Shown piece after piece: positions 13,741 to 33,394 of a DNA stretch of 64,000 nucleotides. The DNA is from a bacterium (lineage in GTDB: Bacteria; Patescibacteriota; Saccharimonadia; Saccharimonadales; SZUA-47). Numbering within the stretch: position 1 is the first letter of the stretch; each line of letters begins with the position of its first letter. The notes under the pieces were generated by a model. That model made no database searches. It was not told the origin of the DNA and worked only from the letters and a program-made list of their open reading frames with translations. The position numbers and the translations under genes were made by a program. The stretch lies in the NCBI GenBank assembly GCA_030427125.1, contig JAUHXF010000001.1, positions 116,102-180,101 on the forward strand, in the 5' to 3' direction.

Positions 13741-15564
13741 ATGAAATCAAATATTATAAAACTTGTTGGAGTGCAGGCTTTGCTAGTATTCGCGGCTTTG
13801 TTGTTCGGTGGAGCTAGCGCAAATGCTGCTGCCGACACATGTGTCTGGACCGGTGGTGGAACTGGAACAGTAGATTCCGGGGCAAATACAATCACATTTA
13901 ACGTTAACGACGCGTCTAACTGGAGCACTTGTGATAACGGTGCTATTCCAGAAGCAGGCGATACGCTCGAATTCCCAGCTAACCTTGCAGACGTAGATCC
14001 TGGAGACACAATTGATGATAATGACGAGTGGCAGTGGACGTATATAGTGAATAATGACTTGGCTGCTGATACAGCTTTTGCAGCGATAAACTTCACTGGA
14101 GACGCCGGGGACGACAATGTCAACAATGACGGTTATAAGCTTGCGGGTAATGCAATTCAGTTAAACGGAGACATTACTTTGGGGTATAACACTTATAACG
14201 AACGGCCGGAGATTCGACTAGATGTTGAAGCGCTAACCGATGTGGCGTTAGGGGTTGGTTTTGGTTCAAATTCAACACTTACTTATGGTGCGAATGAATT
14301 AACCTTAGGAAGTAATGGGTATCCTTCTTTTAGCGCAGAATTCAACGGTACTGGTGTCATAAATATTGGGCAAGCAAACTTTAACTTAGCAAGCACGAGC
14401 TCAATTGGCTCCTCTATAGTGGTTCAAGACGACAGGCGAATTTATGTGGATCTTAATTCACCTCTTAACGACTCAGGGCTCACAATCACGTTAGGTGATG
14501 GTGCCAGCATGGATATCAGCTCGTCACAGGCAGATTTTGATACCCTAAATACCAACATAGTATTTGTAGGAAGCGGCACCACAACATCTTATTCAACTAG
14601 TAATAATTATTCAGATCCTTCAAGTTCAGTCGAGGTTGAGAATTATAGAGGGTCAATTAGCGGGTCAGAATATAACCCTGAAACAGAAAAAACAACTCTA
14701 TTTGGTATAACACTAGCTGGCGATATGACATTGTCCAGCGATACAGTTTTACAATTACGCAGTGATGCTGAAATTACAGGTGATATTAGTGGTGAATATG
14801 AGATATCGTTAATGGCAGGTTCCGTTGGGCGTCTGGCTATTAGCAGCGAGAATAATGACAGTGAAACAAGTGGTACATTGTCTGCAGAAATGATCACTTT
14901 TAATCTGTTTGACGAAGCATTTGATATATGGCTTGCGGCAGGTAGAATCGGCATTTTGTCTCCAGATGAGGAGATTGATGACAAGCTAACTGTAATTCAG
15001 GGGGCTCGTTTACAGGGCGAAGGACAAGTAGCGGGACTAGAAGTACAGACTGGTGCGGTTGTAGCACCCGGAAATAGTCCAGGTTGTATTGTGTCTGACG
15101 GTGACCTAGAGCTGAACGGTACATACGAGTTTGAGATAGAAGAAGATACTGAATGTACCGGGTACGATCAGCTCGATGTGACAGGTGCAGTCGACATTAC
15201 TGGTGCGACTCTAGAGATATCACTTCTAGACGATTACAACTTCGATGTTGATACTGAGTTTATCTTGATAAATAATGATGGCTCAGATGATGTGACGGGT
15301 GAATTTGATGGGCTTGAGGAAGGTGACACAATCACCGTTGATGGCAATGATTTCGAAATTAGCTACGAAGGTGGTGATGGAAATGATGTATCAGTTCTCG
15401 CAATAAGCATATCTGATGAAAATGCTGCTTCTGAAGAGGCTCCTGGAGCTCCTGATACAGGTGTTGGTTCACTCATGCAGAATCCGATGGTAACACTATT
15501 AGCAGCAGTGCTCGCAGCTGGTGCGATAGTTGGATTGCGAAAAGTACAAAGCTCACGAAACTAA
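13741..15564 (+). CDS. secreted beta-helix/PATR-repeat surface protein with C-terminal APxTG-type sorting signal
   Basis: Signal peptide. An autotransporter-associated (PATR)-like motif (CVWTGGGTG…NWSTCDNG…P…D…F). C-terminus …EAPGAPDTGVGS + hydrophobic helix + LRKVQSSRN. Confidence 0.6.
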   Translation: MKSNIIKLVGVQALLVFAALLFGGASANAAADTCVWTGGGTGTVDSGANTITFNVNDASNWSTCDNGAIPEAGDTLEFPANLADVDPGDTIDDNDEWQWTYIVNNDLAADTAFAAINFTGDAGDDNVNNDGYKLAGNAIQLNGDITLGYNTYNERPEIRLDVEALTDVALGVGFGSNSTLTYGANELTLGSNGYPSFSAEFNGTGVINIGQANFNLASTSSIGSSIVVQDDRRIYVDLNSPLNDSGLTITLGDGASMDISSSQADFDTLNTNIVFVGSGTTTSYSTSNNYSDPSSSVEVENYRGSISGSEYNPETEKTTLFGITLAGDMTLSSDTVLQLRSDAEITGDISGEYEISLMAGSVGRLAISSENNDSETSGTLSAEMITFNLFDEAFDIWLAAGRIGILSPDEEIDDKLTVIQGARLQGEGQVAGLEVQTGAVVAPGNSPGCIVSDGDLELNGTYEFEIEEDTECTGYDQLDVTGAVDITGATLEISLLDDYNFDVDTEFILINNDGSDDVTGEFDGLEEGDTITVDGNDFEISYEGGDGNDVSVLAISISDENAASEEAPGAPDTGVGSLMQNPMVTLLAAVLAAGAIVGLRKVQSSRN

Positions 15565-15588
15565 AAAAAGAAAAAAGGAGAAAGAAAA

Positions 15589-16818
15589 ATGAGCAAAATG
15601 AAAAAAGTAAAAGCAGCCGTTCTCTCGACGGTAGTTGGTGCAATGTCGCCACTCGCAATGATTGCACCTGCGTCGGCAATTACAAATACTTGGACAGGCT
15701 TTGACGAGTCGAGCAATAATTGGAACAATTCAGACAACTGGTCATCTGGTTTCGGTCCAGGCAACGGTGACACATTAATTTTTCCTACATCAGCTCGATA
15801 TCAAGTTACGGAAAATGATATTGCGGGAACACTAGAGCTTGTAAGTATTATTTTCAACGGGGAATTTGACCCCGTTAACAACAGTTCAAAAGACTTCAGT
15901 ATTGAAGGCGGTTCAATAGAAATTTCAGACTCTATTCAAGCTAAAATGACTGGCAATGGCGGTAATCATACAATAGACTCTGATGTTGTGCTTGGTGATG
16001 ATGTTACTTTCAGTACCTCAGGAGTAGACACTTTAACAGTAGGTGGTGACGAAACGACACTTGATCTTGCGGGTAACGCACTTACATTGAGCGCTTCAGG
16101 TGGAACCATTACTATACAAGGTGTGATCGATGGTGAAGGAAGCGTAGAAGTCGCTAAAGGTAGAGTGAACATGCTTGCTGAGCCTGGCGATGACTATGAT
16201 GCGACAACAACAGTGTCTGGCGGTGAATATATCGTATCTGCAACAAGCCAGGGTAGTGTCACAATCGATGGTGGTGTACTTAAGGGAGAAAGTGGTGACA
16301 CAGGACTTCTAGGTACGGTAACACTCAATGACGGTTCAATTGAGCCGGGTATGAGCCCAGGCTGTCTCAATGTTTCAGAGTTAGTCCTCAATGGTGGTAC
16401 ATACGAAGTCGAACTTGAAGGCAATGCACAGTGTACAGAGTATGACTCTACAGCTGTAGCTGGCGATGTTGATCTCGGTGAAGGAGATGTGACGCTGGAT
16501 ATTCAAAGACTATCAAGCTTTGAGCCAGAAGTAGATGATGTGTTTGCAATCATTACTTACTCTGATGACTCCGATGTAAGTGGCTATTTTGAAGGTCTCG
16601 AAGATGGTGAATCTGTAACACTCGCTGAGTACACATATGAGATTAACTATGACGATGATGATGCTGTCACGTTAACGGTGCTTGGAACACCAGAAGCACC
16701 ATATACGGGTGTTGGGTCGCTGCTAAACAGTCCGTTGCTTACGCTAAGTGCAGCTGGAGCAGTGTTAGTTGTTCTTGGTGCAACACGGTACGCACAAGTG
16801 AAGAAGACGCAAAAGTAA
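15589..16818 (+). CDS. secreted PATR/beta-helix surface protein with C-terminal APxTG-type sorting signal (paralog)
   Basis: Signal peptide and NTWTGFDESSNNWNNSDNWSSG…P. C-terminus …EAPYTGVGS + TM + RYAQVKKTQK. The RBS-like AAAGGAG precedes it. Confidence 0.6.
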   Translation: MSKMKKVKAAVLSTVVGAMSPLAMIAPASAITNTWTGFDESSNNWNNSDNWSSGFGPGNGDTLIFPTSARYQVTENDIAGTLELVSIIFNGEFDPVNNSSKDFSIEGGSIEISDSIQAKMTGNGGNHTIDSDVVLGDDVTFSTSGVDTLTVGGDETTLDLAGNALTLSASGGTITIQGVIDGEGSVEVAKGRVNMLAEPGDDYDATTTVSGGEYIVSATSQGSVTIDGGVLKGESGDTGLLGTVTLNDGSIEPGMSPGCLNVSELVLNGGTYEVELEGNAQCTEYDSTAVAGDVDLGEGDVTLDIQRLSSFEPEVDDVFAIITYSDDSDVSGYFEGLEDGESVTLAEYTYEINYDDDDAVTLTVLGTPEAPYTGVGSLLNSPLLTLSAAGAVLVVLGATRYAQVKKTQK

Positions 16819-16890
16819 GTTAAAAAGTAAAACGGAATAACATCACACCCCGGGCGCAACTAAGGGGTGTGATGTTTCAAAAGAAAAAAC

Positions 16891-18006
16891 ATGGGTGCAC
16901 AATCACAATCAAACTCAAATCGACTTTCGCTGAATAGTTCAGTGTTTGCTGGTCGTGTAAAGAAGTTCGATACATATGAACCACGACCAGCTCAACAGCA
17001 GCGACCTATTCAGCGTACATCGATACAGCAGGTAGCTCAGAAAAAGATAGTTGCTCCACAGCCGCTCGCCATAGCTAAGCCAGTGGCTCAAATGAGGCCT
17101 GCTGTTTTGAAGAAGCCAGTGTTGAAGCAGCCCGCAGCAGTAGAAAAGCCTAGCCTATACAGAGCTATCCCTAAGCAGAATGTTGGTGATCAAGAACAGT
17201 CAATGCGTCCGACACATACACTTGCTATGCAGGCAGTTGGCCAATCTAACGCAAAGCAGAAATCAGTGCTTGCTGATCAGTTTGAAGAATCGCTTTATAT
17301 GAACGCTAATAAGCCAAAGCAGGAAAAATCTAAGTTGGTTACCGCGATGAACACGGTGGCAGTTATTGTGTTTATCTTTGCGAGTGCGGTTAGCGTGCAA
17401 ACTCTGTTGACTAATCGGCAGACCCAGGATGTACTCGCCGACAAAGCCGAGCAAGTTCAAACAGCAGATGCGCAGGGAGTTTCTGAAGGAACTGGTCGTG
17501 ATCCTGCTGAAGAGCCTGTGCCAGATAACGCTATTATTAACTACCAGGTAGCGCCAGAGTTGCCTAGATACCTAAGCATCCCAGACATCGGCGTATTTGC
17601 ACGTATTAAGCACACGGGTCGGGATGACAGCGGGGCAGTTGATGCGCCACGCAATATACATGACGTTAGTTGGTATACAGAAAGTGCTAAGCCAGGAAAT
17701 GCCATCGGTGCTTCGTTGCTTCTCGGGCATGTTCAAGGCTGGAGTGCGCCAGGAGTGTTTAAGGAAATTGACAAGCTGCAGCCCGGAGCTCGTTTCACCG
17801 TTGAAAAAGGTAGCGGAGAGACGATTACCTATGAAGTAACAAGGGGTCAAGAATACTCACTTGAAGAATTGAACATGGGCAAAATTCTAAGCGCTGAAGA
17901 GTCCGGAGAGCACGATATGAAGCTGATGACATGCGCTGGAGCGTTTGACGCATCGACAGAAAGCTATATGTCGCGCTATGTTGTCTATGCAAAAGTTGTT
18001 CGATAA
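16891..18006 (+). CDS. sortase (class E/F-like) with long Q/P/K-rich N-terminal cytoplasmic extension
   Basis: TM helix then a catalytic domain with LLLGHVQGW (His), KLMTCAG (the TLxTC Cys) and a downstream Arg. Located directly after two candidate substrates. Confidence 0.75.
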   Translation: MGAQSQSNSNRLSLNSSVFAGRVKKFDTYEPRPAQQQRPIQRTSIQQVAQKKIVAPQPLAIAKPVAQMRPAVLKKPVLKQPAAVEKPSLYRAIPKQNVGDQEQSMRPTHTLAMQAVGQSNAKQKSVLADQFEESLYMNANKPKQEKSKLVTAMNTVAVIVFIFASAVSVQTLLTNRQTQDVLADKAEQVQTADAQGVSEGTGRDPAEEPVPDNAIINYQVAPELPRYLSIPDIGVFARIKHTGRDDSGAVDAPRNIHDVSWYTESAKPGNAIGASLLLGHVQGWSAPGVFKEIDKLQPGARFTVEKGSGETITYEVTRGQEYSLEELNMGKILSAEESGEHDMKLMTCAGAFDASTESYMSRYVVYAKVVR

Positions 18007-18197: not shown

Positions 18198-19712
18198 ATG
18201 GATCCGATTACCATTGTTGCAGCTGTGGTGGCTGCTGGTGTTGGCTTTGGTGCTAGCAACTACACGACGAAACAAAAGATAGGTTCAGCTGAAGAGAAAG
18301 CTACTAAAGAGCTCGAAAAAGCCAAGCGTGAAGGTAAAAAAGCAGTAGAAGAGGCTAAAGAAGAAGCACATAAAATTGCCGAAGAAGCACGTAAAGATGA
18401 AAAAAAGCGTCGCGATGAAATCAAAGAGGTTGAAAAACGGCTGTTGGATCGTGAGACTAATTTAGACAAGAAGCTTGATGAACTTGATAAGCGCGCTGAA
18501 AAACTACGAAAAGGTGAAGATGAAGTCGAAGCACTCAAGAACGAGATTCGTGATATTCGGACCAGGCAGCAGGACAAGCTCGAGAAGATTGCTAAGCTAA
18601 AGAAGACCGAAGCAGCTGAAAAGCTTATGGCAATGACCGAACGTGATATTAAAGGTGATCTCGAAGGCCTTGTTGCGAAGTTGCAGAACGAAGCCAAAGA
18701 GAATGCAGAAGAACTTGCCGGGACCGCAATCGTTGAGGCAATGGAACGTATGGCTTCTGAAGTGACAGCAGAGCGCACAATCAGCGCGTTGAAACTAACC
18801 GACGACGAAATGAAAGGTCGAATTATCGGTAAAGAAGGCCGAAATATCCAGGCTATTCAGAAAGCCACTGGCGTAGATGTCATGGTTGATGACACGCCTG
18901 GTATGGTTGTGTTGAGCTCATTCGATCCTATTCGTCGTGCCGTGGCGGTTCGAGTGATGGAGATGCTCATGAAAGACGGCCGAATCCATCCTGGTCGGAT
19001 TGAAGAAGTTGTTGAAAAAGCGCAGAAAGAAATTCATAAAGACGTGATGCGCGCGGGTGAAGACGCTGCGCGTGAAGTTGGTATTGTCGGCATTCCGAAA
19101 GAAGTACTCGAGCTCATTGGGCAACTCAAGTATCGAACAAGCTATGGTCAGAATGTCTTGAAGCACTCAACCGAAATGGCGCATATGGCAGGGATCCTCG
19201 CTGAGCAAGTTGGCGCTGATGTGAAGACGGCAAAGTACGCAGCGCTTATTCACGATATGGGCAAGGCACTGACGCACAAGATGGAAGGAAAGCATCACCA
19301 TATCTCCGGTGAAATGGCTCGAAAGTATGGAGTGCCTGAAGCGGTAGCACAAGCTGCGGAACAACATCATGACGATGTTGAGGCGACAAGTACCGAGGCA
19401 ATCATTATTCGGGTAGTTGATGCAATATCCGCTGCTCGTCCAGGTGCACGAAACATTTCTGCAGAGAACTTCGCAGAACGAATGAAGGATCTTGAGAATA
19501 CTGCACTTTCATTTGAAGGTGTCGATAAAGCATACGCAATTAGTGCAGGTCGTGAAGTTCGTGTTTTCGTTAAGCCAACCAAGCTCGACGATCTCGGAGC
19601 GATTAAGCTTGCTCGTGATGTTGCAAATAAGATCGAATCGACGATGCAATACCCAGGTACGATTAAGGTGAATGTCATCCGCGAAACTCGTGCTATAGAA
19701 TTCGCTAAGTAG
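18198..19712 (+). CDS. rny: ribonuclease Y
   Basis: N-terminal TM, coiled-coil, KH domain (GRIIGKEGRNIQAIQKATG) and HD domain (H…HD motif). Confidence 0.9.
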   Translation: MDPITIVAAVVAAGVGFGASNYTTKQKIGSAEEKATKELEKAKREGKKAVEEAKEEAHKIAEEARKDEKKRRDEIKEVEKRLLDRETNLDKKLDELDKRAEKLRKGEDEVEALKNEIRDIRTRQQDKLEKIAKLKKTEAAEKLMAMTERDIKGDLEGLVAKLQNEAKENAEELAGTAIVEAMERMASEVTAERTISALKLTDDEMKGRIIGKEGRNIQAIQKATGVDVMVDDTPGMVVLSSFDPIRRAVAVRVMEMLMKDGRIHPGRIEEVVEKAQKEIHKDVMRAGEDAAREVGIVGIPKEVLELIGQLKYRTSYGQNVLKHSTEMAHMAGILAEQVGADVKTAKYAALIHDMGKALTHKMEGKHHHISGEMARKYGVPEAVAQAAEQHHDDVEATSTEAIIIRVVDAISAARPGARNISAENFAERMKDLENTALSFEGVDKAYAISAGREVRVFVKPTKLDDLGAIKLARDVANKIESTMQYPGTIKVNVIRETRAIEFAK

Positions 19713-19823
19713 CTAAATTCTACAACGCATTACGCTTGTGGCTACCCCTGTATTTTGGCTATACTGTTATAGATAGCTGAAAACAGGGGTAGTTCTATTT
19801 CTGCGAGGATAGATCGATCGGTA

Positions 19824-22800
19824 GTGAGGTTTTTTCGGCGCAGCCACTATGTGGTTGTTGCTTTGTTTTTACTTGTGCAGTTTTTGCCAGCTGATCAATT
19901 ACGTACACTTCTGCCGAAAGCACATGCTGCACCTGGTGATGGTCATATGTTGTTGTTCTGGGATGGCGGAAGTGCGCCGAGTGGTTGGAGTTGCGTGTCT
20001 TGCAGCCCGGGTGATGATTTCTATCAAAGATTCATTCGAGGTAATGATGCCTATGGAGCTACTGGTGGTGCCGCAACGCATACACACACGGCTGATGGTT
20101 CGGTTGACGAGACAACCACGCCAATGCCGGCTCGATCGCGCAATACACCACCGAACGACATTCACGAAAATGATCATACACATACATTTAGTCCGACGAT
20201 TGGAACTGCTAGCAATCTCCCTGAATACAGACAGCTGCAAGTTATCAGACACGACACTGCAGGTGATCCTGCAACGCTACCGGCTGGTGCAATAGCAATA
20301 TTTGACGCCGCAGTGCCAACTGGCTGGACGAGGTATTCAGCGCAAGATGGTCGATATATACGTGGTGAAAACACTGTTGGCACAACGGGCGGTTCGAATA
20401 CGCATACCCATGCCATAACGGGCACAACCGGCACAGCTCAGGGTGCTGATCGTGAACGAAACATAAACGGTACACAAACAAATGTTGCTGATGGGGCACA
20501 TACGCATGATGCATCGGGGACTTCCGCGAGCACGAGCAACGAGCCACCGTATATTGAGGTCATTCTCGGCGAATTGGACGCTGGTGCTGCCCCGCCAAAT
20601 GACATGTATGCAATGTGGGATGATGACCCGACAACAGCGTGGTCTGTGAAGAGTGAGAGTGGTGGTGTCTTCCACCAGGCGTTCTTTAAAGGTGCGAGTT
20701 CATATGGTGCTACCGGCGGGAGTGAGTCGCACAGTCATGCAGATGTGAGTTATGAATCAGGTTTACCAAGTGCGACGACTACCTCACGAACAAACGGTAC
20801 GGTCCGCGCCGCAGACGATCAGCATACGCACACGATAAACGTCACGAATTTCTCCGACGTGAATCATCTGCCGCCGTATATCGACGTTATTATTGCCAAG
20901 AAACAAGCTCCAAGTACACTGGAGCAATCATCATACCGATGGTTTAGAAACCAAGATAGTACAGATGCTGGAACGTCGCTCGCTGCTGAGAACACCGCAG
21001 CAACTGCACCACCTCAGGGCAAAGAATTTCGTTTGCGCTTCACAATTGGTGTCAGCGATGTCGACATGGGGTTGAACGGAGAGACCATGAAGCTGCAGGT
21101 TGCGCAACGCGTAGGTGCGTGTGATACGAGTTTCATCGGCGAAACATACAGTGATGTATCAGATTCATCTGGTGTGATTCGTTTTGCTAATAATCCTACG
21201 CCAGATGACGGCGATTCGTTAACGACAATTGCTAATGATCCAACTGGCGGAGGCGGGACGGTTGTCGCGCAAAGCTATGAAGAGTCTGGCGGTTTTTCCA
21301 ATACAGAAGCAGCAATAGATATTGGTGAAGATGGATTGTGGGACGTGGCGTTGGTCGATGATTCAGCACCGGCTTCAACAGCGTATTGTTTCCGTGTGGT
21401 GCGTAGCTCTGGATCAAGCCTAGATTACTACAGCGAAATACCAGAAATCACCACTGATGACGGGCTTGGTCATATGCTGCTGTTTTGGGATGGAGTTAGT
21501 GTGCCGAGCGGCTGGAGCTGTGTGTCGTGCAACCCAGGTGATGATTTCTATCAACGCTTTCCACGCGGCGAGACTACCTACGGAGCAACTGGAGGTAGTG
21601 CTGCGCACTCGCACACCGCAGACGGAACAGTTGGGGCGCAATCAGCCTTATCAGGAAGAAGTAGTGCAGGCACTGGATTCATTCGGGCACACGATCACTC
21701 CATTACGCCGATCATTGGCAATGCTAGTAACTTGCCGGTGTATAGACAGCTGCAGGTAATTCGCTTTGACAGCAGTGGAACTCCGACGACAATTCCAGCT
21801 GGTGCAATAGCAATTTTTGACGCAGCTGTACCAACAGGCTGGACGAGGTATTCAGTGCAAGATGGTAATTACATTCGCGGTGAGAGCACTGTAGGATCAA
21901 CTGGTGGTAGCAACACTCATACCCATACGATTACTGGTACAACAAGCATAGGTACAGGGACTATTCGAGGTCAAAACACAAATAATACCCAAGGCCCCGC
22001 ACCAACTGATACACACACCCACACAATCTCTGATAATTCAGACTCTGTGAGTAACGAACCGCCGTACATCGAAACGATCTTGGGCTCAATAAACGCCAAT
22101 GGCTCTGCGCCATCAAACATGCTAGCTATGTGGGATGGAGTTATGCCTGGTACCTGGACATCGCAATCAGACGCCGTAGGCGCATTTAACCAGAACTTCA
22201 TGAAGCCTGCAGCAACCTATGGCGCGACTGGCGGAAGTGCGACGCACTCACATGGCACAACTATCACGACATCATCCGGACCAAGTGCAACGGCGACAAC
22301 TAGAACGGGTGGGACGAACCTAAGTTCAGCAACGCACACGCACCAAGTTACAATTGATAATTTCTCTGACGTGAATCACCTACCACCTTACATCGATGTC
22401 ATTATCGGAAAGCTAACAGGCACCAATACTGGGCCAAATATACCGACCGCTTTGGATCAAATTCGCGTAAGTGACAGTTCATCGGTGGCGGTTGGTGGGT
22501 TCACCAATAATGGACAAGTTGAATTCACGGCGCAAGCTACAGACACTGACAATCCAGACGATTTGCAATTGTGCGTCGAGGTGCTTCCTATCGGCAGTCC
22601 ATTCACGAATGTTGAGTTGCAATGCGGCACAGCGGCGACCTACAGTGGCTCAGCGGTTAGCGTGTCAGTTACTATTTCGGGACTCAGTGATGGTACAAGC
22701 TACCATTGGCAAGCGCGGATTAAGGACGGAGCGGGGGCGACATCTGGCTGGGTGAGTTTTGGTGCAAACCCAGAGGCAAATGCTGATTTCATTGATGACT

Positions 22801-23627
22801 CTACTGATCCGAGCGGAACGGTATTTGACGGCTCGACTACGGGATTTGATGCTGATTTCAACGATGGCTCACTTGATACTTTGGAGGCGAATTGGAACAT
22901 CACAGACGGCGGTTCAGGAATCTCTGAGTACGAATATGCTATCGGCACGAGCGCAGGCGGAACGGATATTGTTGCCTACACGAGCAACGGAACAACCGAT
23001 TCAGTAACCGCAGGGTCACTTACGCTAGAGACTTCACTGCCGTACTATTTCTCCATTCGTACAACTGACAATGCCGATAATCAGATTATAATAACTAGCG
23101 ATAGTCAGCTTGTCGCACCGACGCTTACATTTAGCACGAGCACATCAGGCGGTGTACAGTTTGATAATCTGAACGCAAATAATAACTACACAGACACGAA
23201 AACTACCGTGTTAACAACGTCAACAAATGCACGAAATGGCTACGCGGTGCGTGCCTATACAACTGGGCTCTTAGAGAATAGCTACTTCGATGTTATTAGC
23301 AACTTTACTGGCGGCACCTACGCGGCCCCAGATACATGGCAGAGTGGTGATGTTGGCTACGGCTATACGTCTAATGACACACAGGTGCAGGGATCTAATA
23401 TCTTCAATGCAGTAACGTGTCCAGGTGGTGGATCAGGAAGCTCATGTTACGCGCCGTTTAGTCAGACAGCTCCGGGCGACATAGTTGCGGACAACGAGTC
23501 AACGATTACCGGGACGCCTATTACGAGTGAGCAATTCATCATTACGCATCGCGTCACAACAGATGCAAATCAAGAAGCCGGGCAGTACCAGACAATAGTC
23601 ATATTCCAGGCCACAGCAAAGTATTAG
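19824..23627 (+). CDS. giant secreted surface protein: 8 phage tail-collar-like repeats (2 blocks of 4), beta-sandwich/FN3-like domains, shared C-terminal module
   Basis: Repeats fit the tail-collar pattern (GW.C…G..Y.R…G.TGG…H.H … NEPPYIEVILG). Blocks at nt 19941–20905 and 21468–22420 are ~80% identical in DNA. C-terminal module is …PTLTFSTSTSGG…GQYQTIVIFQATAKY. Confidence 0.7.
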   Translation: MRFFRRSHYVVVALFLLVQFLPADQLRTLLPKAHAAPGDGHMLLFWDGGSAPSGWSCVSCSPGDDFYQRFIRGNDAYGATGGAATHTHTADGSVDETTTPMPARSRNTPPNDIHENDHTHTFSPTIGTASNLPEYRQLQVIRHDTAGDPATLPAGAIAIFDAAVPTGWTRYSAQDGRYIRGENTVGTTGGSNTHTHAITGTTGTAQGADRERNINGTQTNVADGAHTHDASGTSASTSNEPPYIEVILGELDAGAAPPNDMYAMWDDDPTTAWSVKSESGGVFHQAFFKGASSYGATGGSESHSHADVSYESGLPSATTTSRTNGTVRAADDQHTHTINVTNFSDVNHLPPYIDVIIAKKQAPSTLEQSSYRWFRNQDSTDAGTSLAAENTAATAPPQGKEFRLRFTIGVSDVDMGLNGETMKLQVAQRVGACDTSFIGETYSDVSDSSGVIRFANNPTPDDGDSLTTIANDPTGGGGTVVAQSYEESGGFSNTEAAIDIGEDGLWDVALVDDSAPASTAYCFRVVRSSGSSLDYYSEIPEITTDDGLGHMLLFWDGVSVPSGWSCVSCNPGDDFYQRFPRGETTYGATGGSAAHSHTADGTVGAQSALSGRSSAGTGFIRAHDHSITPIIGNASNLPVYRQLQVIRFDSSGTPTTIPAGAIAIFDAAVPTGWTRYSVQDGNYIRGESTVGSTGGSNTHTHTITGTTSIGTGTIRGQNTNNTQGPAPTDTHTHTISDNSDSVSNEPPYIETILGSINANGSAPSNMLAMWDGVMPGTWTSQSDAVGAFNQNFMKPAATYGATGGSATHSHGTTITTSSGPSATATTRTGGTNLSSATHTHQVTIDNFSDVNHLPPYIDVIIGKLTGTNTGPNIPTALDQIRVSDSSSVAVGGFTNNGQVEFTAQATDTDNPDDLQLCVEVLPIGSPFTNVELQCGTAATYSGSAVSVSVTISGLSDGTSYHWQARIKDGAGATSGWVSFGANPEANADFIDDSTDPSGTVFDGSTTGFDADFNDGSLDTLEANWNITDGGSGISEYEYAIGTSAGGTDIVAYTSNGTTDSVTAGSLTLETSLPYYFSIRTTDNADNQIIITSDSQLVAPTLTFSTSTSGGVQFDNLNANNNYTDTKTTVLTTSTNARNGYAVRAYTTGLLENSYFDVISNFTGGTYAAPDTWQSGDVGYGYTSNDTQVQGSNIFNAVTCPGGGSGSSCYAPFSQTAPGDIVADNESTITGTPITSEQFIITHRVTTDANQEAGQYQTIVIFQATAKY

Positions 23628-26800: not shown

Positions 26801-28885
26801 CCGAGCTCACTATTAGATGGAGGTGCTAACACGCTGCAAACTTATGAAGAGGCGAATGATGCCTTGTCAAATCCAAACCTCATCCCGGCTAATAGTCGTG
26901 GTGAATGGGATTGGGTTATACAAAATAATGGCGCTGCAAACTTTACCAGTTATTGTTTCCGTATGGTGACTGTTGCTGGCGATCCAATTAATTATGCACT
27001 ATACCCACGATTAACAACGTCAACTGGTGTGGTCAACTCGGCACCGAACGACCCTATGAATCTTACGCAAGAACGAACAACAGGTGTGAATATTGCAGTT
27101 GGTGAGCTGATCAATACCGGCTCAGTAGTATTCAAGGCAGACATAAGTGATCAGAATGCTAATGACATTATCGAGCTTTGTATAGAAGTCAAAGAAGTCG
27201 GCCAAGCTTTTACTGATACTGAAGACAGCTGCAGTTCAAGCTATGTATATAACGGCTCCATGGTCGCAGCGGAACACACTATATCGGGTTATGAACACAA
27301 TACAACATACCACTGGCAAGCTCGCGTTAAAGACGCTGCTGGTTTGTATTCTGCCTGGGCTAGTTTTGGGGGTAATAGCGAAAATGCGCCAGACTTCGAT
27401 GTTGATACGGTTGACCCGGAGGTAATCGTCTATGATGGTATGACTCTAGGAGCAGACATTGAATTTAACGACGGGTCACTTAATACGCTCAGTGCAGTAT
27501 GGGAACTGCAAGACGAAGACGTTCCGACTGATTTTAGCGGCTTGGCACTATGGCTCGATGGTGCAGATGTCAACGCAGATGGTTCAACAGTTTCAGATGG
27601 AGCTGCAGTAAGCACATGGTTTGATAAATCAGGTAACGGGAATGATATAGCCGGTACTGGCGCCTCGACTTATAGCTCAGCAAACCAGGCGCCCGGATAC
27701 AGTGGCACGGCACAGCCATTCGATGATACTTACGATCGATCTGGTGGAAACGTAAACTCACAAACGTCATTCAGCGTTGTGACTGGTGATAATACAGATA
27801 CAAATGCCGTATGGTATGAGACTACGACACCTCGTGTTGCGCCAGGAGAACAAGGGCTACTGGGTGGCGGCACAACTCTTACAAACAATAACTTGTATGG
27901 AAGCTTTATTAGCAGTCAGCAACTCGTAACTTTGGAATATCTATCGTCGGGTGCTTCAACAAGCTGGCTTGATCGTAGCCAAGAGTTCTCATTCTCCGAG
28001 ACGCAGATTTTCGCTGATTCACAACGGTTGGTTATTGGTGATGACACAACTGGTGGAAACCCGCTGCAGTCGAATGAATATGTTCATGAATTAATTGTCT
28101 ATAATCAAGATTTGACGGCTGCGGAACGAAAAGCTGTATGGAACTACCTCGAGTGTAAATGGGGTCTCAAAGATTGTACTGTTACATATGAATACTCAAT
28201 TGGTACCTCTCCAGACGGGACTGATCTTGTCGATTGGACTTCTACAGGGACAACAACAACATTTACCGCCAGCACTCTTAATCTAGAAACTTCAGATATA
28301 TATTACGTCAATATTAGAGCAACAGATCCTGCTGGTAATCAGAAAGTCTTTAACTCTGATGGTCAGCAGGTAGCACCATCGCTTACATTCTCCACGTCGA
28401 CATCCAGTGGTGTAGTTTTTGATAATCTCAATGCCGGTAATAGTTTTACCGACACAGAGTCGACCATACTCACAACGAGTACAAATGCTCGAAATGGCTA
28501 TGCAGTTCGCTCATATATAACCGGTTCATTAGAGAATGTACTTCTAGATACGATAGGCGAGTTTGACGGTGGTACTTATGCTGCTCCTGACACCTGGCAA
28601 GGTGGGGATGAAGGCTATGGTTATACGTCTAGCGATACACTAGTTGATGGTGTAAATCGATTTAATGCAGCAACATGTCCGGGTGGTGGTAGTGGTGGTC
28701 CGTGTTTCGCGCCATTTAGTTTATCTGCCCCTGGCGACATAGTGGCAGACAATCTTGGTCCAGTAGTCGGAACACCAATCTCCAATGAGCAATTTACTAT
28801 TACGCATCGAGTCACAACAAATGCCTCGCAGTCTTATGGCACGTATCAGACTTCAGTGATATTTCAAGCAACAGCTGTATACTAA
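23825..28885 (+). CDS. giant secreted lectin-domain protein (3 H-type-lectin-like domains, LamG-like domain, FN3-like domains, shared C-terminal module)
   Basis: The start is probably TTG or GTG. There are three ~100-aa repeats matching the H-type lectin pattern, around nt 25640–26480 (a representative one is ITFSPSFAAPPVVIV…TTTGADIRFC…IAWFAIEPG). A LamG_3-like segment (LALWLDGADVNADGS…DKSGNGND) lies around nt 27530–28180. The C-terminus …GTYQTSVIFQATAVY is homologous to that of 19824..23627. Confidence 0.7.
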   Translation: MVTEFTFLLSFIQPAAAAGEIFRTTTYEIEAGTFTSTVYSLTLNNNLENNYFTMISGPSEATGSRAPNADRVRVTADPHSNFASTTASNQLELTRNNATNDWIGALTVVECLSNCATKGFVLSEILETDLAAGTANTLQTVNDTLSASHTAQTVPFGGRFGGGMESAGTDSNAYATTVGIKITKTSTNQITYERYGAESRAPAAGTVTTYITEWGSEWTVQDVSVSGTNAGSGIDATNEYETTSITSVVRDNTFVWGGGYSYDDGLGDGALGQVITLGDGVSQNATETLVAVGAEGGQVSPGRDFQVYVLEHEGLAVDYRFRARGDQGSSTGYQELTQTVDAPIGLETRDNTATDVRYTEGFRVPLFYNTSGGTGQAYSRTGAWGLRHTDVTEITYWRAYAGQPITGWFQSIDFADIKFTNVITRQEAFRWRDDSTDLNTDGGWLASEDTNLGDQAKNTNLRLRIKSSNFGTTPETAAKTYELQFSEKTSASCNALGSWVGISDSTTDAFALYDSPNIDPDGEVTTLGLLSNGDGFTYVNGEGRELADTTNSIGPIANSAYTEIEYALRPTDEAITGKTYCFRLFDTTASMPLDGYTVYPELTIESVVIDAVSGLGEAGTFSSAVDGGWTTINFLGTYMNPVVVGTTNTQNGEDALVFEARNVTGTSAEMRVCESEGAAANGCDTHASETVGYMVIDAAVAATTDGIEAGTFSADGDFDTDAVTTSYPTAFSSAPYVFANVNTVNSSDEPVEVMVRGVTASTFTAGLCHQLVGPDLNSCDTTHGSETVGWVAIEPGNEPFSEQFDTGDVSIGNSTWTPITFSPSFAAPPVVIVESQTDNGGEDAVLDEARLVTTTGADIRFCEMENFDTCDSHNADDIAWFAIEPGQFSEALALDQDGYRFYENADALTPAVSLDAENTEIANVDSGDVLRLRLAVQSGSQATVVDAFEPKLQYGVGTTCSAVGTWNDVGGIGSGTIWRGYNNATPSDAATLPSSLLDGGANTLQTYEEANDALSNPNLIPANSRGEWDWVIQNNGAANFTSYCFRMVTVAGDPINYALYPRLTTSTGVVNSAPNDPMNLTQERTTGVNIAVGELINTGSVVFKADISDQNANDIIELCIEVKEVGQAFTDTEDSCSSSYVYNGSMVAAEHTISGYEHNTTYHWQARVKDAAGLYSAWASFGGNSENAPDFDVDTVDPEVIVYDGMTLGADIEFNDGSLNTLSAVWELQDEDVPTDFSGLALWLDGADVNADGSTVSDGAAVSTWFDKSGNGNDIAGTGASTYSSANQAPGYSGTAQPFDDTYDRSGGNVNSQTSFSVVTGDNTDTNAVWYETTTPRVAPGEQGLLGGGTTLTNNNLYGSFISSQQLVTLEYLSSGASTSWLDRSQEFSFSETQIFADSQRLVIGDDTTGGNPLQSNEYVHELIVYNQDLTAAERKAVWNYLECKWGLKDCTVTYEYSIGTSPDGTDLVDWTSTGTTTTFTASTLNLETSDIYYVNIRATDPAGNQKVFNSDGQQVAPSLTFSTSTSSGVVFDNLNAGNSFTDTESTILTTSTNARNGYAVRSYITGSLENVLLDTIGEFDGGTYAAPDTWQGGDEGYGYTSSDTLVDGVNRFNAATCPGGGSGGPCFAPFSLSAPGDIVADNLGPVVGTPISNEQFTITHRVTTNASQSYGTYQTSVIFQATAVY

Positions 28886-29800
28886 TTGGCAATGAAGTAC
28901 GCGTTATTTGGTTTTGGTGTATTGCTGAGTTTCGTATGTATCGCAAAAACTGGACTCGCACAGCAAGAGACACAACTAGTAGTGACGCCAGCTATTATTG
29001 ATGCGCCAGCAGTCGCCGGTGAATCTACAAAACGTACGATACAGATAAGTAATAACAATGATTATGCACTGCCAATTAGTGTTGAAGTGCAATCAGCTGT
29101 TATCGATGGTGAACCTCTTGAGGGAGTGAGTAACGACCGGTATGATGTGAGTAATTGGGTCTCCTTTGACAAAAAAACCTATATTTTTGAATCTGGAGAG
29201 ACGCGGCAAATACCATTTACTATTACGCCTCCGTTTACTGCTTCAGCTGGCGGACATTATGCACAGATTAGTATTCGAGGGTTAACCCTCGAATCTTCAT
29301 CAGGGCAGCAAGGACTTGTATTCCCTGAGATTGGTGTGCCGTTACTCGTAACGGTGCCGGGTGAAATCGTTGAGGATGCTCGTGTTCAGGATGTGTCGAT
29401 ATTTCCTCGATTCGTAACACCAAACAAACCAATTGATATCGAAATACCCGTTGAAAATATTGGAACGGTACATAATCTTGTTCGAGTGAAGATGGTCTTT
29501 GTGCAGGGTGATTCGGTTGTTGATGAACTAGAGTTACCGCCAGGAATTATTCTCCCTGGCACGAGGAAGCTCTTCCGTGGTGTGTGGCAGCCAGAACAAT
29601 ATGGGCAGTTTGATGCCTATGTAGAATTGGCGTATGGGTCTAATCGCACTACAACACGATCGCAAGCAGAACAGGTGCTTGTCATGCCTCCTGTCAGCTC
29701 ACTTATCTTACTTGGAATTTTTGTGTGGCTAGGTACTTATCTATGGCCGCGTCGGCAGAATATTGTAGGTGCTATTAAAACAATATTTACAGCTCAATAA
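28886..29800 (+). CDS. signal-peptide protein with C-terminal TM anchor (DUF916/CscA-like architecture)
   Basis: Signal peptide, a ~250-aa beta-rich ectodomain, and a C-terminal TM (LILLGIFVWLGTYLW) plus basic tail. Paralogous to 31014..32003. Confidence 0.5.
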   Translation: MAMKYALFGFGVLLSFVCIAKTGLAQQETQLVVTPAIIDAPAVAGESTKRTIQISNNNDYALPISVEVQSAVIDGEPLEGVSNDRYDVSNWVSFDKKTYIFESGETRQIPFTITPPFTASAGGHYAQISIRGLTLESSSGQQGLVFPEIGVPLLVTVPGEIVEDARVQDVSIFPRFVTPNKPIDIEIPVENIGTVHNLVRVKMVFVQGDSVVDELELPPGIILPGTRKLFRGVWQPEQYGQFDAYVELAYGSNRTTTRSQAEQVLVMPPVSSLILLGIFVWLGTYLWPRRQNIVGAIKTIFTAQ

Positions 29801-29863
29801 AGCTTGCGCTTTACTCTTGATTTCGGTACAATTTCAAGGAATTCTACAAAGAGAGGGTATTAC

Positions 29864-30922
29864 ATGACACAAACAAAGATTTTTCGACTATCGACGCTTT
29901 TGGCGATAGTTGGTTTATTAATGGCACTTTTGCTGCCAGCAGTTCCTGCGAGCGCTTTAACAAATAGTTCATTGCTATTGTCAGATCCGCGTACTGGCGA
30001 GACAAGTGACTACACACTAACGACTAGCGGTCTAACAACTGGAACTACGATCAACTGTATACAGCTGGATATCGGTACCGCATCTGATGGTACAGGCGAT
30101 GTTGGGCTTGATCTTTCAAGTGTCGATGTAACGACTGAAACAATTACATCTGGTGGTGCATGGGCAGATGCGAGCGTTGACGGTACAACTGATCAATTGC
30201 GATACACATCAGCTGGTGGAGCAACACCAAATGCCTCAGGTTCAATTACTTGGGATGATGTCGTCAATGGATCCACTGAAGGTGCAACATACTACGGCGT
30301 ATTTGAGACATTTAGCAATACCGACTGTTCAACCGGTGGTCCTGTCGACTCGGTCACTGTTGCATTCACCTACAAAGACGGAGAATTGGTGCAACTTACA
30401 ATTGATCCAACACTAACATTTACTTGTTCAGATGTCGCATCTGGACTGCCGGTAAACGGTGTGAACACAACAGTTGCTTCGACTGCGAGCGGTATTAATC
30501 ATGGCAATTCAGTAACATTTGGTGCCAAAGGTATATCAGCACATGATTTGAACGTGACCACAAATGCACCTGGCGGCTACACTGTGTACATCCGCCACAC
30601 AGGACAGCTTACAAATGGTTCTGACAACATTGCTAATCACACCGGTACAAATGCAGCGCCTACAGCTTTCCCTGCTGCAGGTACTGAAGCCTGGGGCTAT
30701 ACAACTGAGGATAATACTCTAGGAGGTGGTGGAGCGACACGGTTTACTGCTGCAAATGGATACGCCGGCTTTACGACTACTAACGAGCCAGTCATGGACA
30801 ACACAGGTGCAGCTCCAAGTGGTGACACGGTTCGTGTTGGTCACCAGGTTGGTGTAGCGAATACTACACCGTCAGGTACATACCAGACGACCATTGTGTA
30901 CACAGTTGCTTCTGTGTACTAA
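29864..30922 (+). CDS. secreted protein carrying the shared C-terminal module (small CscB/WxL-like analogue?)
   Basis: Start at the internal ATG preceded by GAGAGGG. Signal peptide. C-terminal …PTLTFTCSD…GTYQTTIVYTVASVY is homologous to the C-termini of both giant proteins. Confidence 0.55.
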   Translation: MTQTKIFRLSTLLAIVGLLMALLLPAVPASALTNSSLLLSDPRTGETSDYTLTTSGLTTGTTINCIQLDIGTASDGTGDVGLDLSSVDVTTETITSGGAWADASVDGTTDQLRYTSAGGATPNASGSITWDDVVNGSTEGATYYGVFETFSNTDCSTGGPVDSVTVAFTYKDGELVQLTIDPTLTFTCSDVASGLPVNGVNTTVASTASGINHGNSVTFGAKGISAHDLNVTTNAPGGYTVYIRHTGQLTNGSDNIANHTGTNAAPTAFPAAGTEAWGYTTEDNTLGGGGATRFTAANGYAGFTTTNEPVMDNTGAAPSGDTVRVGHQVGVANTTPSGTYQTTIVYTVASVY

Positions 30923-31013
30923 AACTCACAAGCAGTGATGTACAAAAGACCCCGTTTGCGCGGGGTCTTTCTCTTGAGTAGTCTATAAAAACAGGGTAGA
31001 CTACTTAGTAAGT

Positions 31014-32003
31014 ATGGGGTTCACACACAGACACATTGCCAGGTGGGCAAGCGTCGCTTTAATTGCACTAGTTAGTATTTTTGCTGTTTTCACTGTCTCG
31101 TCCAGTGCACAAGAACCAGCTGAGACTATTTCACTTGGTATTTCACCGCAAATTCTTGATGTGACGGCTAATCCTGGAGAGACACTTGAGAATACATTCC
31201 GATTAACGAATGCTTCTCCAGCGTCAGTCGATATCCAAGCAACACCAAAGAACTTTACACCTCGTGGGGAGGAAGGCGCCGTTGATTTAACCGTCGATGA
31301 CACTAGTTTCTCCTTAGCAGACTGGGTTAGTGTGTCGCCTGAGCGAACAGTAATTGAGCCTGGTCAAACAACTGATTTTGCTGTTACGATTGTGGTGCCA
31401 GATAACGCTGAGCCTGGTAGCCATTTTGGCTCAGTGGTTTTTCAGACAATTCCACCAGAAGATGCTACCGCAGACGCCTTAGTGAGCCAGGAAATAGCTC
31501 CGGTAATACTTGTAAAAATAGCTGGAAACACGACCGAGACAGCCGAGATAGAAGAACTCACCACTGATCAGAATAGCTACGGTAGTAACCCAACAATTCA
31601 GTTAATTTCTCGCATAAAGAACACCGGAAATGTTCACTTCAAACCGGTGGGTAAGATTACTATCAAGAATATGTGGGGAAACGAGATTGCTGAATTAGAG
31701 CTGGATCGAAGAAATGTGCTGCCAGATTCTATTCGGCAAATAACAACTGATTGGCAGCCAGAAGGGTTTCAATTAGGCAGATACACCGCAACTTTAACTC
31801 TTGTGTATGGAGAGAATGATGAAATACGTGTCGAAGAAACGAGTTTCACGATTTTCCCTTGGGAGATAATATTACCAATTGTAGCTGGAGCTGTAATAGT
31901 GAGTTTTGTAGCCATACGTTATCGAAAGCGCTTTGCACTAGCTGCAAAAGTACTCAGCGGTAAACAAGATACTAATTCAAACTCAAAAGGCACAAAAGAG
32001 TAA
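31014..32003 (+). CDS. signal-peptide protein with C-terminal TM anchor (paralog of 28886..29800)
   Basis: Same architecture: signal peptide, beta-rich ectodomain, and a C-terminal TM (ILPIVAGAVIVSFVAI) plus RYRKR tail. Confidence 0.5.
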   Translation: MGFTHRHIARWASVALIALVSIFAVFTVSSSAQEPAETISLGISPQILDVTANPGETLENTFRLTNASPASVDIQATPKNFTPRGEEGAVDLTVDDTSFSLADWVSVSPERTVIEPGQTTDFAVTIVVPDNAEPGSHFGSVVFQTIPPEDATADALVSQEIAPVILVKIAGNTTETAEIEELTTDQNSYGSNPTIQLISRIKNTGNVHFKPVGKITIKNMWGNEIAELELDRRNVLPDSIRQITTDWQPEGFQLGRYTATLTLVYGENDEIRVEETSFTIFPWEIILPIVAGAVIVSFVAIRYRKRFALAAKVLSGKQDTNSNSKGTKE

Positions 32004-32008
32004 GTAGC

Positions 32009-33394
32009 GTGCATAGAATCACACAACTAATGGTGGTAGGGTTGTTTGTAGGTCTATTTTCACTAGCTATAGCAAATAACGGCGCTGCCATCTCGCGAAC
32101 GGAAGACATAGAGTTAACAATCCCTGATACCGTGTTGGAAATTAGTGGCTATGCAGCTCCAGGCGCGCTCGTAACAATTCAGGAAGGTAGTTCTACGCTA
32201 GGCACAGTCCTGGCAAACGCGGAAGGAGCTTATTCAACAGTACTTACTTCGCAAGACGCAGGTTTGCGCTCTATTAAGACATATTTTACTGATGCAGAGG
32301 GTATACGCTCTCAGACAAGCACAAGGAATATTAGTATTCAACCACAGCGAGTTACCTCGTTTGAAACATATTTAAGCCCAACAATTATCCGGCGAACACC
32401 TACGCAAGTTCAGAGCGGCAGTATCGTACAGATTGTTGGTTATACAGTTGCTGATGCACGCGTGTCATTGTCATTCGGCGTCGTTGGAGATGAACAGCAG
32501 GTCATTGCGAACTCAGCAGGATATTATGAATTTTTATTAGACACTAAAATTTTAGATGATGGAAAGTACACTGTTTCAACATCAAGTAAAAAAACAGGAT
32601 TGACAGATAGCAGTGAGCAGTCTAAATCTGTTTCTTTTCGAGTTGTTAGCAAAGAAAAGTCAGAGGAAGGTGCCCCTGACATAATCGTCCGTCCTAATCA
32701 ATTACCTCCCCCTATTCCACAGTCACCAGATGACGGATCTGTCATAGTCGGCGACAGTGTATTAATAACTGGTGAGTCAGTGCCTTATGCTCAAATTGTA
32801 ATTTACGAAAATGGCAAGGTTATTGGCTCAGTACTTTCGAATGGACAGGGTAAATGGGAATTCAACTATACCGCTACATCAAGCCCCATAGTATTAACAT
32901 TTGAAGCGTGTCGGGAGGGGGTCTGTAGTGTTCTATCGCAGTCTTTATCTCTGTCGTTTCCAGCATTGGTAAGCACTCAGAATCCATGTAGCAAGCAGGT
33001 TTTTGAGCTGGAGTCTTATCGATTTTGGGGTGTACTGCCAAACGAGGAGGTGATGCTAGATGTATTGTTAACAAATGGTGACGGGGTGTTATTTGTAGAT
33101 TGGGGTGACGGTACTACTGAAGAACGGTTTGATCATGATGCGGATAGACCAACGTCCTACGAACATGTTTATAGCACAGGCCAGCATAATGGCTCTATCA
33201 GATTTGAACAAGGGGAGTGTAATATAGCACGATACTTTAGTGTAGATGCTCGTGGCCATAGTGGCATTAACACAAATTTTTACCTTATGGCATTGCTGAT
33301 TCTGGCCATCTTACCGTTTAGTTATTGGTCATATATCGAAGGTAAGGTTCTAATGCAAAAAGAAGTAAAAAAAGCGACAAAGAGCAACATATAG
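32009..33394 (+). CDS. Ig-like (Big) repeat surface protein with C-terminal TM anchor
   Basis: Signal peptide, repeated ~90-aa beta-sandwich-like units and a C-terminal hydrophobic helix. Confidence 0.45.
   Translation: MHRITQLMVVGLFVGLFSLAIANNGAAISRTEDIELTIPDTVLEISGYAAPGALVTIQEGSSTLGTVLANAEGAYSTVLTSQDAGLRSIKTYFTDAEGIRSQTSTRNISIQPQRVTSFETYLSPTIIRRTPTQVQSGSIVQIVGYTVADARVSLSFGVVGDEQQVIANSAGYYEFLLDTKILDDGKYTVSTSSKKTGLTDSSEQSKSVSFRVVSKEKSEEGAPDIIVRPNQLPPPIPQSPDDGSVIVGDSVLITGESVPYAQIVIYENGKVIGSVLSNGQGKWEFNYTATSSPIVLTFEACREGVCSVLSQSLSLSFPALVSTQNPCSKQVFELESYRFWGVLPNEEVMLDVLLTNGDGVLFVDWGDGTTEERFDHDADRPTSYEHVYSTGQHNGSIRFEQGECNIARYFSVDARGHSGINTNFYLMALLILAILPFSYWSYIEGKVLMQKEVKKATKSNI

Follow-up and report, generated by a model that had tools for sequence, protein, structure and literature searches.

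Bacteria of the candidate phyla radiation (CPR), Saccharibacteria among them, are obligate episymbionts, and their means of finding and holding hosts are largely unknown. The present study concerns a cell-surface locus (positions 13741-33394) within 64,000 nucleotides of DNA from a Saccharibacteria-like organism (contig JAUHXF010000001.1, positions 116,102 to 180,101; this whole stretch is hereafter the window), the larger part of which we read as an operon for a pilus of the Pam type. The Pam pilus has been reported from Ca. Mycosynbacter amalyticus (Troman et al., bioRxiv 2026, 10.64898/2026.03.03.709456), where cryo-electron microscopy (cryo-EM) of thin filaments, together with proteomics, led to the pilins PamA and PamB (PDB 25PZ/25QA). 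In both, an N-terminal domain with a beta-sandwich of nine strands is followed by a single linker strand and then by a truncated, Ig-like C-terminal domain, into which the linker of the neighboring subunit is taken up (donor-strand exchange). The Pam operon also encodes the PapD/FimC-like chaperones PamC and PamD, each with a C-terminal transmembrane (TM) helix, the further pilins PamE and PamT, and PamR, a terminator of RbmA-like FnIII type that has an N-terminal strand and is anchored by a TM helix. The system is restricted to the CPR; a 'tail fibre-like protein' is reported as a conserved neighbor with no assembly role given (10.64898/2026.03.03.709456).

Other described systems that bear on this locus are the WxL clusters of Lactobacillales and Listeria. 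These combine a small and a large WxL protein with a WxLIP, which is made up of DUF916, DUF3324, and a TM helix (Hassan et al. 2023, PMC10599100), and in Lactobacillales (WxL/Csc clusters) they also include an LPXTG protein (Siezen 2006). In AlphaFold2 (AF2) complexes, a strand of the WxLIP fills a gap in the WxL sandwich (PMC10599100). Such strand donation may be regarded as chaperone-like, although the authors do not term it so. The Pam preprint (10.64898/2026.03.03.709456) makes no mention of WxL.

The locus is filled by ten open reading frames (ORFs; p1 to p10, Table 1), all on the + strand. An earlier reading made from the sequence alone (hereafter the sequence-only reading) had taken these, minus p4, as nine consecutive same-strand genes for one exported cell-surface apparatus, plausibly for attachment to a host or substrate, in a Saccharibacteria-like organism. 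The apparatus and the common strand stand, whereas the genes are not consecutive, as the RNase Y ORF (p4) lies in between. Furthermore, our analysis splits the supposed island into two modules: module A (13741-18006), a sortase with two substrates, and module B (19824-33394), the Pam operon. The split follows because the p5-p10 block is found in relatives without the sortase, RNase Y, and beta-helix genes (loci L003, L009, L011, and L015). We put the probability at roughly 75% that module B is a Pam-type pilus operon, that module A is independent of it, and that the two are adjacent because local gene order is conserved. Thus, the attachment apparatus is real, and it now belongs to a very recently described system; the earlier remark that it was not known to that reader as a described one has been overtaken by the Pam pilus of CPR bacteria and by its NCBIfam models, namely, NF058581 (CPR_Pam_pilin_C) and NF058578 (CPR_pilus_PamR), a match to the latter having led us to the preprint.

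The candidate for the major pilin is p8. Its ORF opens at 29804, its orthologs begin at M21, and a 352-aa protein is called on an identical contig. In the AF2 model, a signal helix (signal peptides of window proteins were assessed by eye) is followed by nine strands at residues 34-169 (predicted local distance difference test score, pLDDT, ~90) and by a strand at 184-190; the C-terminal beta domain is modeled less confidently, as an incomplete fold would lead one to expect. The linker strand LTIDPTLTF (aa ~178-190) is an invariant region, and the C-terminal domain occupies aa ~220-352. Matched against the published description, the model fits the Pam pilin architecture in all three parts, the N-terminal domain of nine strands, the linker, and the truncated Ig-like domain at the C-terminus. 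Homologs of ~352 aa number more than 300, the named ones from Saccharibacteria, and 19 of the 24 aligned family members match NF058581 (best 8.4e-10). These family matches indicate homology and place the window proteins in a divergent subfamily. Sequence searches of the PDB with p8, the p8-family profile, and the p9-family profile returned no Pam, WxL, or WxLIP entry. Within the window, the pilin domain occurs only in p5, p6, and p8.

The two giants, p5 and p6, had been said to share a C-terminal module with the small secreted p8, and this is borne out. The C-termini of p8 and p6 are 32% identical (BLASTP, E 1e-7), and hhalign of a 15-sequence giant profile with the p8 family gives a probability of 98.6% (E 1e-15) over both the linker and the C-terminal domain, with the linker 'SDGQLVAPSLTFS' set against 'DGELVQLTIDPTLTFT'. 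The last ~170 residues of the giants also match NF058581 weakly (p5 at 0.0017, model positions 3-148 of 148; p6 at 0.007). The linker and pilin module are conserved across 15 giants, and p5 and p6 are 66% identical over their last 248 aa and have two further modules in common. Since their C-termini carry the pilin linker and domain, as judged by NF058581 and hhalign, the giants can be regarded as pilin-type subunits with enormous N-terminal parts, and they are probably adhesin subunits.

These N-terminal parts differ in composition. In p5, a duplicated ~340-aa block (aa 30-368 and 539-879, 56% identity), built of ~110-aa His-rich repeats, is followed by beta-sandwich and FN3-like modules ahead of the linker and pilin domain. 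In p6, there are three H-type-lectin-like repeats (aa ~618-885), two beta-sandwich modules, one FN3-like module, and a LamG-like region. The earlier description of the giants as 'multi-lectin' proteins is therefore right in part: in p6, H_lectin passes its Pfam cutoff (27 bits against 24, two stretches), the sole curated-cutoff match in the giants, while Collar and Laminin_G_3 gave none at E<=1 in Pfam scans that included giant fragments. A PHROGs scan of the giants found no tail-fiber family, just a Hoc-like Ig match and a virion-structural (LamG-like) match. The listed TTG start of p6 (23825) gives a poor signal peptide, and upstream of it the frame runs open as far as the stop codon at 23744-23746. 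Initiation at the ATT at 23755 would supply 'IKNRAQLFQSNLVRGRFLITVLLF' and with it a classic signal peptide resembling those of the L001 and L005 orthologs, so that p6 likely starts at this non-canonical codon.

The giants could instead be free-standing secreted or wall-associated lectins or enzymes whose C-terminal module is only an anchor that binds the wall or the chaperone, leaving a pilus of p8 alone. Their N-terminal parts are indeed of great size and variability, either the p5 or the p6 type is found in relatives, and the Pam paper lists its 'tail fibre-like protein' only as a conserved neighbor. Against this, the module conserved in the 15 giants holds both the linker strand and the groove domain at the profile probability given above, and in every locus that shows a giant beside p8, a chaperone gene directly follows the giant. 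Therefore, we consider free-standing giants unlikely.

The sequence-only reading had proposed that p7 and p9, which both combine a signal peptide with a TM helix at the C-terminus, are paralogs, and this holds well: they are 26% identical (E 7e-22), and a hidden Markov model (HMM) of the p9 family matches p7 at 1.3e-27. The p9 model (pLDDT 88) shows two Ig-like domains and a TM helix in a PapD-like fold, and p7 matches PapD_N of Pfam weakly (0.0056). The window thus has the PapD/FimC-like chaperones with signal peptide and C-terminal TM helix that mark the Pam system, and p7 and p9 are the only chaperones in it. This pair of anchored paralogs and the shared C-terminal module are the key features of the block, as had been suspected. 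Because the stop codon of p6 abuts the start codon of p7, and because locus L009, which has no giant, also has no p7, p7 is probably the dedicated chaperone of the giants. The evidence for the giants as pilin-type adhesin subunits with a probable chaperone of their own is an addition of the present analysis.

The last gene of the block encodes the Ig-like anchored protein of the sequence-only reading, and p10 does have Big_6 domains (5.9e-12) and a C-terminal TM helix. It matches NF058578 at 6.2e-5, and orthologs match the same model at 5.7e-11 and 2.5e-18 over model positions 54-227 of 297, below the curated cutoff; a 677-aa homolog in a more distant pam locus matches it at 2.6e-60. The N-terminal strand motif and the TM helix are conserved in the p10 family. 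Following the model of the Pam paper, p10 might donate a linker-like strand. In a Woesebacterium (L021:12099-12986) and a Parcubacterium (L029:2379-3698), the PamR-like proteins have no TM helix and end in dockerin-like repeats (NF041540, dockerin_GC, matches the former at 2e-4), which implies a different anchoring of the fiber.

A scan of species-representative genomes yielded 32 loci, none of them from M. amalyticus and all from the CPR (Saccharibacteria, Woesebacteria, Berkelbacteria, Parcubacteria, and Microgenomates). Some 17 Saccharibacteria loci preserve the order giant-p7-p8-p9-p10, and the other four groups have the core as well, with one or more pilins and chaperones and often a PamR-like gene. 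A pilin-domain protein and a chaperone occur together in 30 of the 32 loci; of the two without a detectable chaperone, one spans only 1.8 kb (L014) and in the other the contig ends 1.8 kb past the pilin gene (L018). The components therefore lie, as in the published system, in a conserved operon restricted to the CPR. The co-conservation in related genomes that had been expected for the whole set is seen for the syntenic p5-p10 block and extends to the sortase only in close relatives, the sortase, p1, and p2 being separable. Relatives carry a single giant, of p5 or p6 type, whereas in the window the two types follow one another in tandem. Pilin genes and their arrangement vary among loci (L013:9971-12334; L019:9890-13420; L020, L022, L023, and L025): there are between one pilin gene, as in the window, and three tandem copies, and in several loci the PamR-like gene is upstream, not downstream, of the pilins. 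In distant Saccharimonadia pam loci, a ~450-aa protein between the chaperone genes (L019:14416-15762; also L020:5970-7517) matches the NCBIfam model TafC, the tip/activator subunit of haloarchaeal Tat-fimbriae (tafi), at 3.8e-15. It may be a link between the Pam system of bacteria and the archaeal tafi, also an usher-less donor-strand fiber.

For the block, the analysis shows homology, domain architecture, predicted folds, and synteny, and from these we infer filament formation in this organism, the place of the giants in the fiber, the specificity of the chaperones, and the ligands. All products of module B would be exported by Sec, and the membrane-tethered p7 and p9 would donate a strand that caps the incomplete Ig-like domain at the C-terminus of each subunit. 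Polymerization would then proceed by donor-strand exchange, in which a subunit inserts its internal 'PTLTF' linker strand into the groove of the neighboring C-terminal domain. As the major shaft pilin, p8 would polymerize into a thin extended fiber, into which the giants would be built through the same linker and groove, most likely at a distal position, with p7 as their dedicated chaperone and their lectin-like modules directed to glycans of the host or substrate. Finally, p10 would end the fiber and, by means of its TM helix, hold it at the cytoplasmic membrane. Neither an usher nor a sortase would be required. Should this be so, the operon variant shows what a Pam fiber may use for recognition: the giants appear interchangeable, the p5 and p6 types being single in relatives and together here, and H-type-lectin-like and repeat modules fused to a pilin assembly module are concrete candidates for determinants of host specificity.

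Several points weigh against this assignment. It rests on family-level and transitive evidence, as the window proteins score below the NCBIfam cutoffs: p10 reaches 22 bits on NF058578 (cutoff 300), and on NF058581 (cutoff 55 bits) the giants reach 18.5 and 16.5 bits and p8 itself gives no match. The M. amalyticus system was compared through its published description and the NCBIfam models, not through its sequences or structures. The C-terminal domain of the p8 model is of low confidence, and fold searches gave just generic Ig-like and adhesin folds. When a position-specific scoring matrix of the pilin linker was run over p10 orthologs, the N-terminal strand was not consistently picked and the background was not exceeded. 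No PamT-like subunit, consisting of the C-terminal domain alone, was found in the window. Strand exchange among the window proteins is a prediction, and since the giants retain the linker, a tip position is not forced on them and they may be internal.

The sequence-only reading had compared the block with the WxL/Csc clusters, and the resemblance is real. It had also called the parts non-homologous-looking; this remains true of the C-terminal module, which is unlike WxL domains by sequence, and is not true of the chaperones. PF06030 (WxLIP_PGBD, that is, DUF916) is matched by 23 of the 30 members of the p7/p9 family (best 1.2e-7), p9 itself matching at 0.0014 (19 bits, below the gathering score of 27.3), and PF11797 (DUF3324) is matched marginally by two of the 30 (E 0.17). 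Aligned by hhalign with a Listeria innocua WxLIP, the p9 family reaches a probability of 91% over 210 columns, and its HMM finds a Clavibacter DUF916 protein at 2e-21 and the Listeria WxLIP at 6e-14. Furthermore, in tblastn of p9 against plasmids, proteins annotated as DUF916 came up in Clavibacter, Paenibacillus, Listeria, and Arthrobacter. Fold and profile evidence together argue strongly that p7 and p9 are true homologs of WxLIP. This link between Pam chaperones and WxLIP/DUF916 proteins, in sequence and in structure, is also added by the present analysis.

For the shared module, the outcome is different. PF13731 (WxL) matched none of 24 p8-family members at E<=10, and no WxL motif or domain was found in the module; hhalign with a 55-sequence WxL profile gave 3.1% for the pilins and 0.2% for the giants, and with larger profiles 0.9%, the final strand alone aligning. 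(A homolog search seeded with a Listeria WxL protein had returned near-identical Listeria sequences only, and the diverse WxL set was taken from an exhaustive search of representatives.) The candidate identity of the module with a WxL domain was therefore rejected at the sequence level, on the PF13731 null result and the hhalign values of 0.2-3.1%. A C-terminal strand pattern, GTYQTTIIYT in Pam, GTYQSTLTWTL in a Listeria WxL protein, and GDYSSTITLSL in the neighbor of a Clavibacter DUF916 gene, is only suggestive. The WxL analogy is thus in part true homology (the anchored two-Ig-domain proteins) and in part architectural only (the shared module).

Taken further, the chaperone homology could point to a non-filamentous complex of the WxL/Csc type, in which p7 and p9, anchored in the membrane, are WxLIP-like holders of one small and two large ligand-binding proteins at the cell surface through the shared module, and no polymer is formed. 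The PF06030 matches, the significant HMM and hhalign matches to Listeria and Clavibacter DUF916 proteins, the common cluster logic, and the AF2-predicted completion of the WxL sandwich by a WxLIP strand all accord with this. But the homologous M. amalyticus subunits have been seen as filaments by cryo-EM, p8 and the giants retain the conserved linker strand that mediates polymerization, a WxL domain or motif is absent, and p10/PamR has no counterpart in WxL clusters. In view of these, a non-polymeric complex appears quite improbable.

The Pam-type reading of the block allows a broader proposal, which we offer tentatively and at somewhat less than even odds: Pam pili and the WxL/Csc clusters of Firmicutes and Actinobacteria could be branches of one ancient usher-less family, with anchored strand-donating chaperones and with small and giant subunits having a common groove-bearing C-terminal module; the giant lectin proteins here would be adhesins that p7 loads onto the fiber. 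If true, WxLIP proteins would serve in assembly or as chaperones and would not be host-membrane anchors, and short polymers of WxL proteins may exist. The homology of Pam chaperones and WxLIP connects a poorly understood family of clusters associated with virulence and colonization in Listeria, Enterococcus, and Lactobacillus to a structurally characterized assembly mechanism; the function of WxL clusters thereby becomes testable. On a Clavibacter phaseoli plasmid (pCCh), the DUF916 protein found by the p9-family HMM (L036:7257-9071) adjoins a 208-aa secreted protein ending in 'GDYSSTITLSLFE', to which no WxL or Pam-pilin HMM match was obtained. The pair, flanked by GH43 glycosidase genes, may be a third flavor of the same cluster type.

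Module A consists of two beta-helix proteins and a sortase. The PATR repeats attributed to p1 and p2 in the sequence-only reading were not recovered in a Pfam search, and p1 matches only the autotransporter passenger region of EprS in NCBIfam (4.4e-10). Its other two claims on this module hold: both proteins end in a sorting signal, AP(D/Y)TG with a hydrophobic stretch and a basic tail, and p3 is a sortase by Pfam (1.9e-16) and by the NCBIfam class F model (1.8e-30, under the curated cutoff). The paralogs p1 and p2 are 34% identical over their C-terminal ~240 aa (E 1e-25), and in the ortholog tails (A/T)PDTG is conserved ahead of a TM segment and K/R residues. Module A thus has the sortase and the xPxTG, hydrophobic, basic-tailed substrates of a sortase-dependent surface-protein system, cleavage being predicted only; p1 and p2 are probable substrates, which the class-F-like sortase would attach covalently to the wall, independently of the pilus. 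The N-terminal extension of p3, ~150 residues of Q/P/A-rich low complexity ahead of the TM helix (16891-17400), is unusual among sortases. That all nine surface genes nevertheless form one integrated apparatus, with the sortase anchoring or assembling the fiber and the beta-helix proteins included, is very unlikely. The genes do lie close together on one strand, the order sortase-RNase Y-giant recurs in L001, L002, L004-L007, and L030, and the Lactobacillales clusters include an LPXTG protein, but a housekeeping RNase Y separates the parts, close relatives alone have the sortase and RNase Y ahead of the block, the four loci named above have the block in other contexts without a sortase or p1/p2, L002 has the sortase and not p1/p2, no sortase lies near the distant pam loci, and no sorting signal was found in the p5-p10 sequences.

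Upstream, the locus is flanked by RecA, RecX, TsaE, and a TsaB-like gene, and downstream by tRNA-Pro, VIT1, MgtC, a tRNA cluster (His/Arg/Gly, minus strand, 35384-35641, 2 kb beyond tRNA-Pro), and a Mur ligase. GC content is even across the region, and a prophage or mobile-island origin was rejected on these housekeeping flanks and the uniform GC content. Promoter and terminator scans of the region gave counts no better than chance; the sole terminator-like site between Pam-block genes is a stem-loop at 23642-23660, 15 nucleotides past the p5 stop. A type IV pilus gene cluster lies on the minus strand at 2879-9763 of the window, with a PilB-like T2SSE ATPase (8000-9763), a PilC-like T2SSF protein (6781-7998), a prepilin with an N_methyl motif (6188-6679), and PilM/PilN/PilO (3763-6046). 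With the Pam operon, two unrelated filament systems are therefore encoded within 30 kb.

Table 1. Features of the locus, in window coordinates.
Feature	Position	Strand	Description
p1, 607 aa	13741..15564	+	Signal peptide; beta-helix/autotransporter-passenger-like; C-terminal APDTG, TM segment, and basic tail
p2, 409 aa	15589..16818	+	Paralog of p1; C-terminal APYTG, TM segment, and basic tail
p3, sortase	16891..18006	+	Low-complexity N-terminal extension, one TM helix, class-F-like catalytic domain
p4, RNase Y	18198..19712	+	TIGR03319 at 1.4e-172 (NCBIfam); housekeeping, in neither surface module
p5, giant, 1267 aa	19824..23627	+	Probable adhesin subunit; repeats, beta-sandwich, FN3-like modules, Pam linker and pilin C-terminal domain
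p5 linker strand 'QLVAPTLTFS' and Pam-pilin-type C-terminal domain	23106..23624	+	By hhalign
p6, giant, 1686 aa	23825..28885	+	Probable adhesin subunit; Pam linker and pilin domain at the C-terminus
p6 linker strand 'QQVAPSLTFS' and Pam-pilin-type C-terminal domain	28364..28882	+	By alignment and hhalign
p7, 304 aa	28886..29800	+	PapD/WxLIP-like chaperone; signal peptide, two Ig-like domains, C-terminal TM helix
p8, 352 aa	29864..30922	+	Pam-type major pilin (PamB-like); signal peptide, N-terminal beta-sandwich, linker, incomplete Ig-like C-terminal domain
p9, 329 aa	31014..32003	+	Membrane-anchored PapD/FimC/WxLIP-like chaperone (PamC/PamD-like)
p10, 461 aa	32009..33394	+	PamR-like terminator/anchor; signal peptide, N-terminal strand IELTIPDTVLEISG, Big_6/Ig-like domains, C-terminal TM helix
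tRNA-Pro	33476..33552	+	Downstream boundary of the Pam block, directly 3' of p10

Compared with known systems, module A shares with sortase-assembled Gram-positive pili and anchored adhesins a sortase and two substrates with xPxTG, TM segment, and basic tail. In contrast to such pili, it has no pilin motif, and the Pam subunits have no sorting signals; module A appears to be a plain case of beta-helix adhesins anchored to the wall. The chaperone-usher pili (Pap, Fim, CFA/I, and Csu) resemble module B, as proposed here, in the incomplete Ig-like domain of their subunits, in donor-strand complementation and exchange, and in a two-domain adhesin at the end of the fiber. However, the window block has neither an usher (no family of the PapC/FimD type appears among the Pfam and NCBIfam matches of the ten ORFs) nor an outer membrane, and its chaperones are anchored in the membrane instead of being soluble in the periplasm. 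Furthermore, the Pam donor strand is an internal linker and not an extension of the N-terminus, the subunits each possess a second (N-terminal) domain, and sequence similarity is limited to the weak PapD_N match.

The haloarchaeal Tat-fimbriae (TafA/C/E with the anchor TafF; PMC11821415) are likewise usher-less donor-strand fibers assembled at the cytoplasmic membrane, whose tip subunit bears a lectin-like (laminin-G-like) domain and whose terminal subunit is anchored by a TM segment. They differ in Tat export and in having no chaperones described, and the Taf models of NCBIfam did not match the window proteins. With the WxL/Csc clusters, the block shares the logic of a small protein, large proteins whose binding domains are N-terminal, and an anchored two-Ig-domain protein; p7 and p9 have the WxLIP layout of signal peptide, two Ig-like domains, and TM helix, and for both systems the prediction is that a strand of the anchored protein completes the beta-sandwich of its partner. 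In contrast to these clusters, the block has a linker strand that would mediate polymerization, a putative PamR-like terminator, two chaperones, and a CPR host, whereas WxL proteins are thought to bind peptidoglycan and not to polymerize. A small LPXTG protein like CscD is also absent from p5-p10, the xPxTG proteins p1 and p2 being large beta-helix proteins in a separable module.

The published Pam system differs from the block in several respects. The window has one shaft pilin gene, of about PamB size, and no PamA-, PamE-, or PamT-like gene was found in it; p10, at 461 aa, exceeds the 297 positions of the PamR model and has extra Big_6 domains; the ATP synthase is not adjacent; and scores fall under the NCBIfam cutoffs. 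The window carries two giants (1267 and 1686 aa) with the pilin linker and C-terminal domain. On the other hand, the pilin architecture, the PapD-like chaperones with a C-terminal TM helix, a putative PamR-like anchored protein, predicted Sec export with no usher, and the conserved operon with its CPR-only distribution are common to both.

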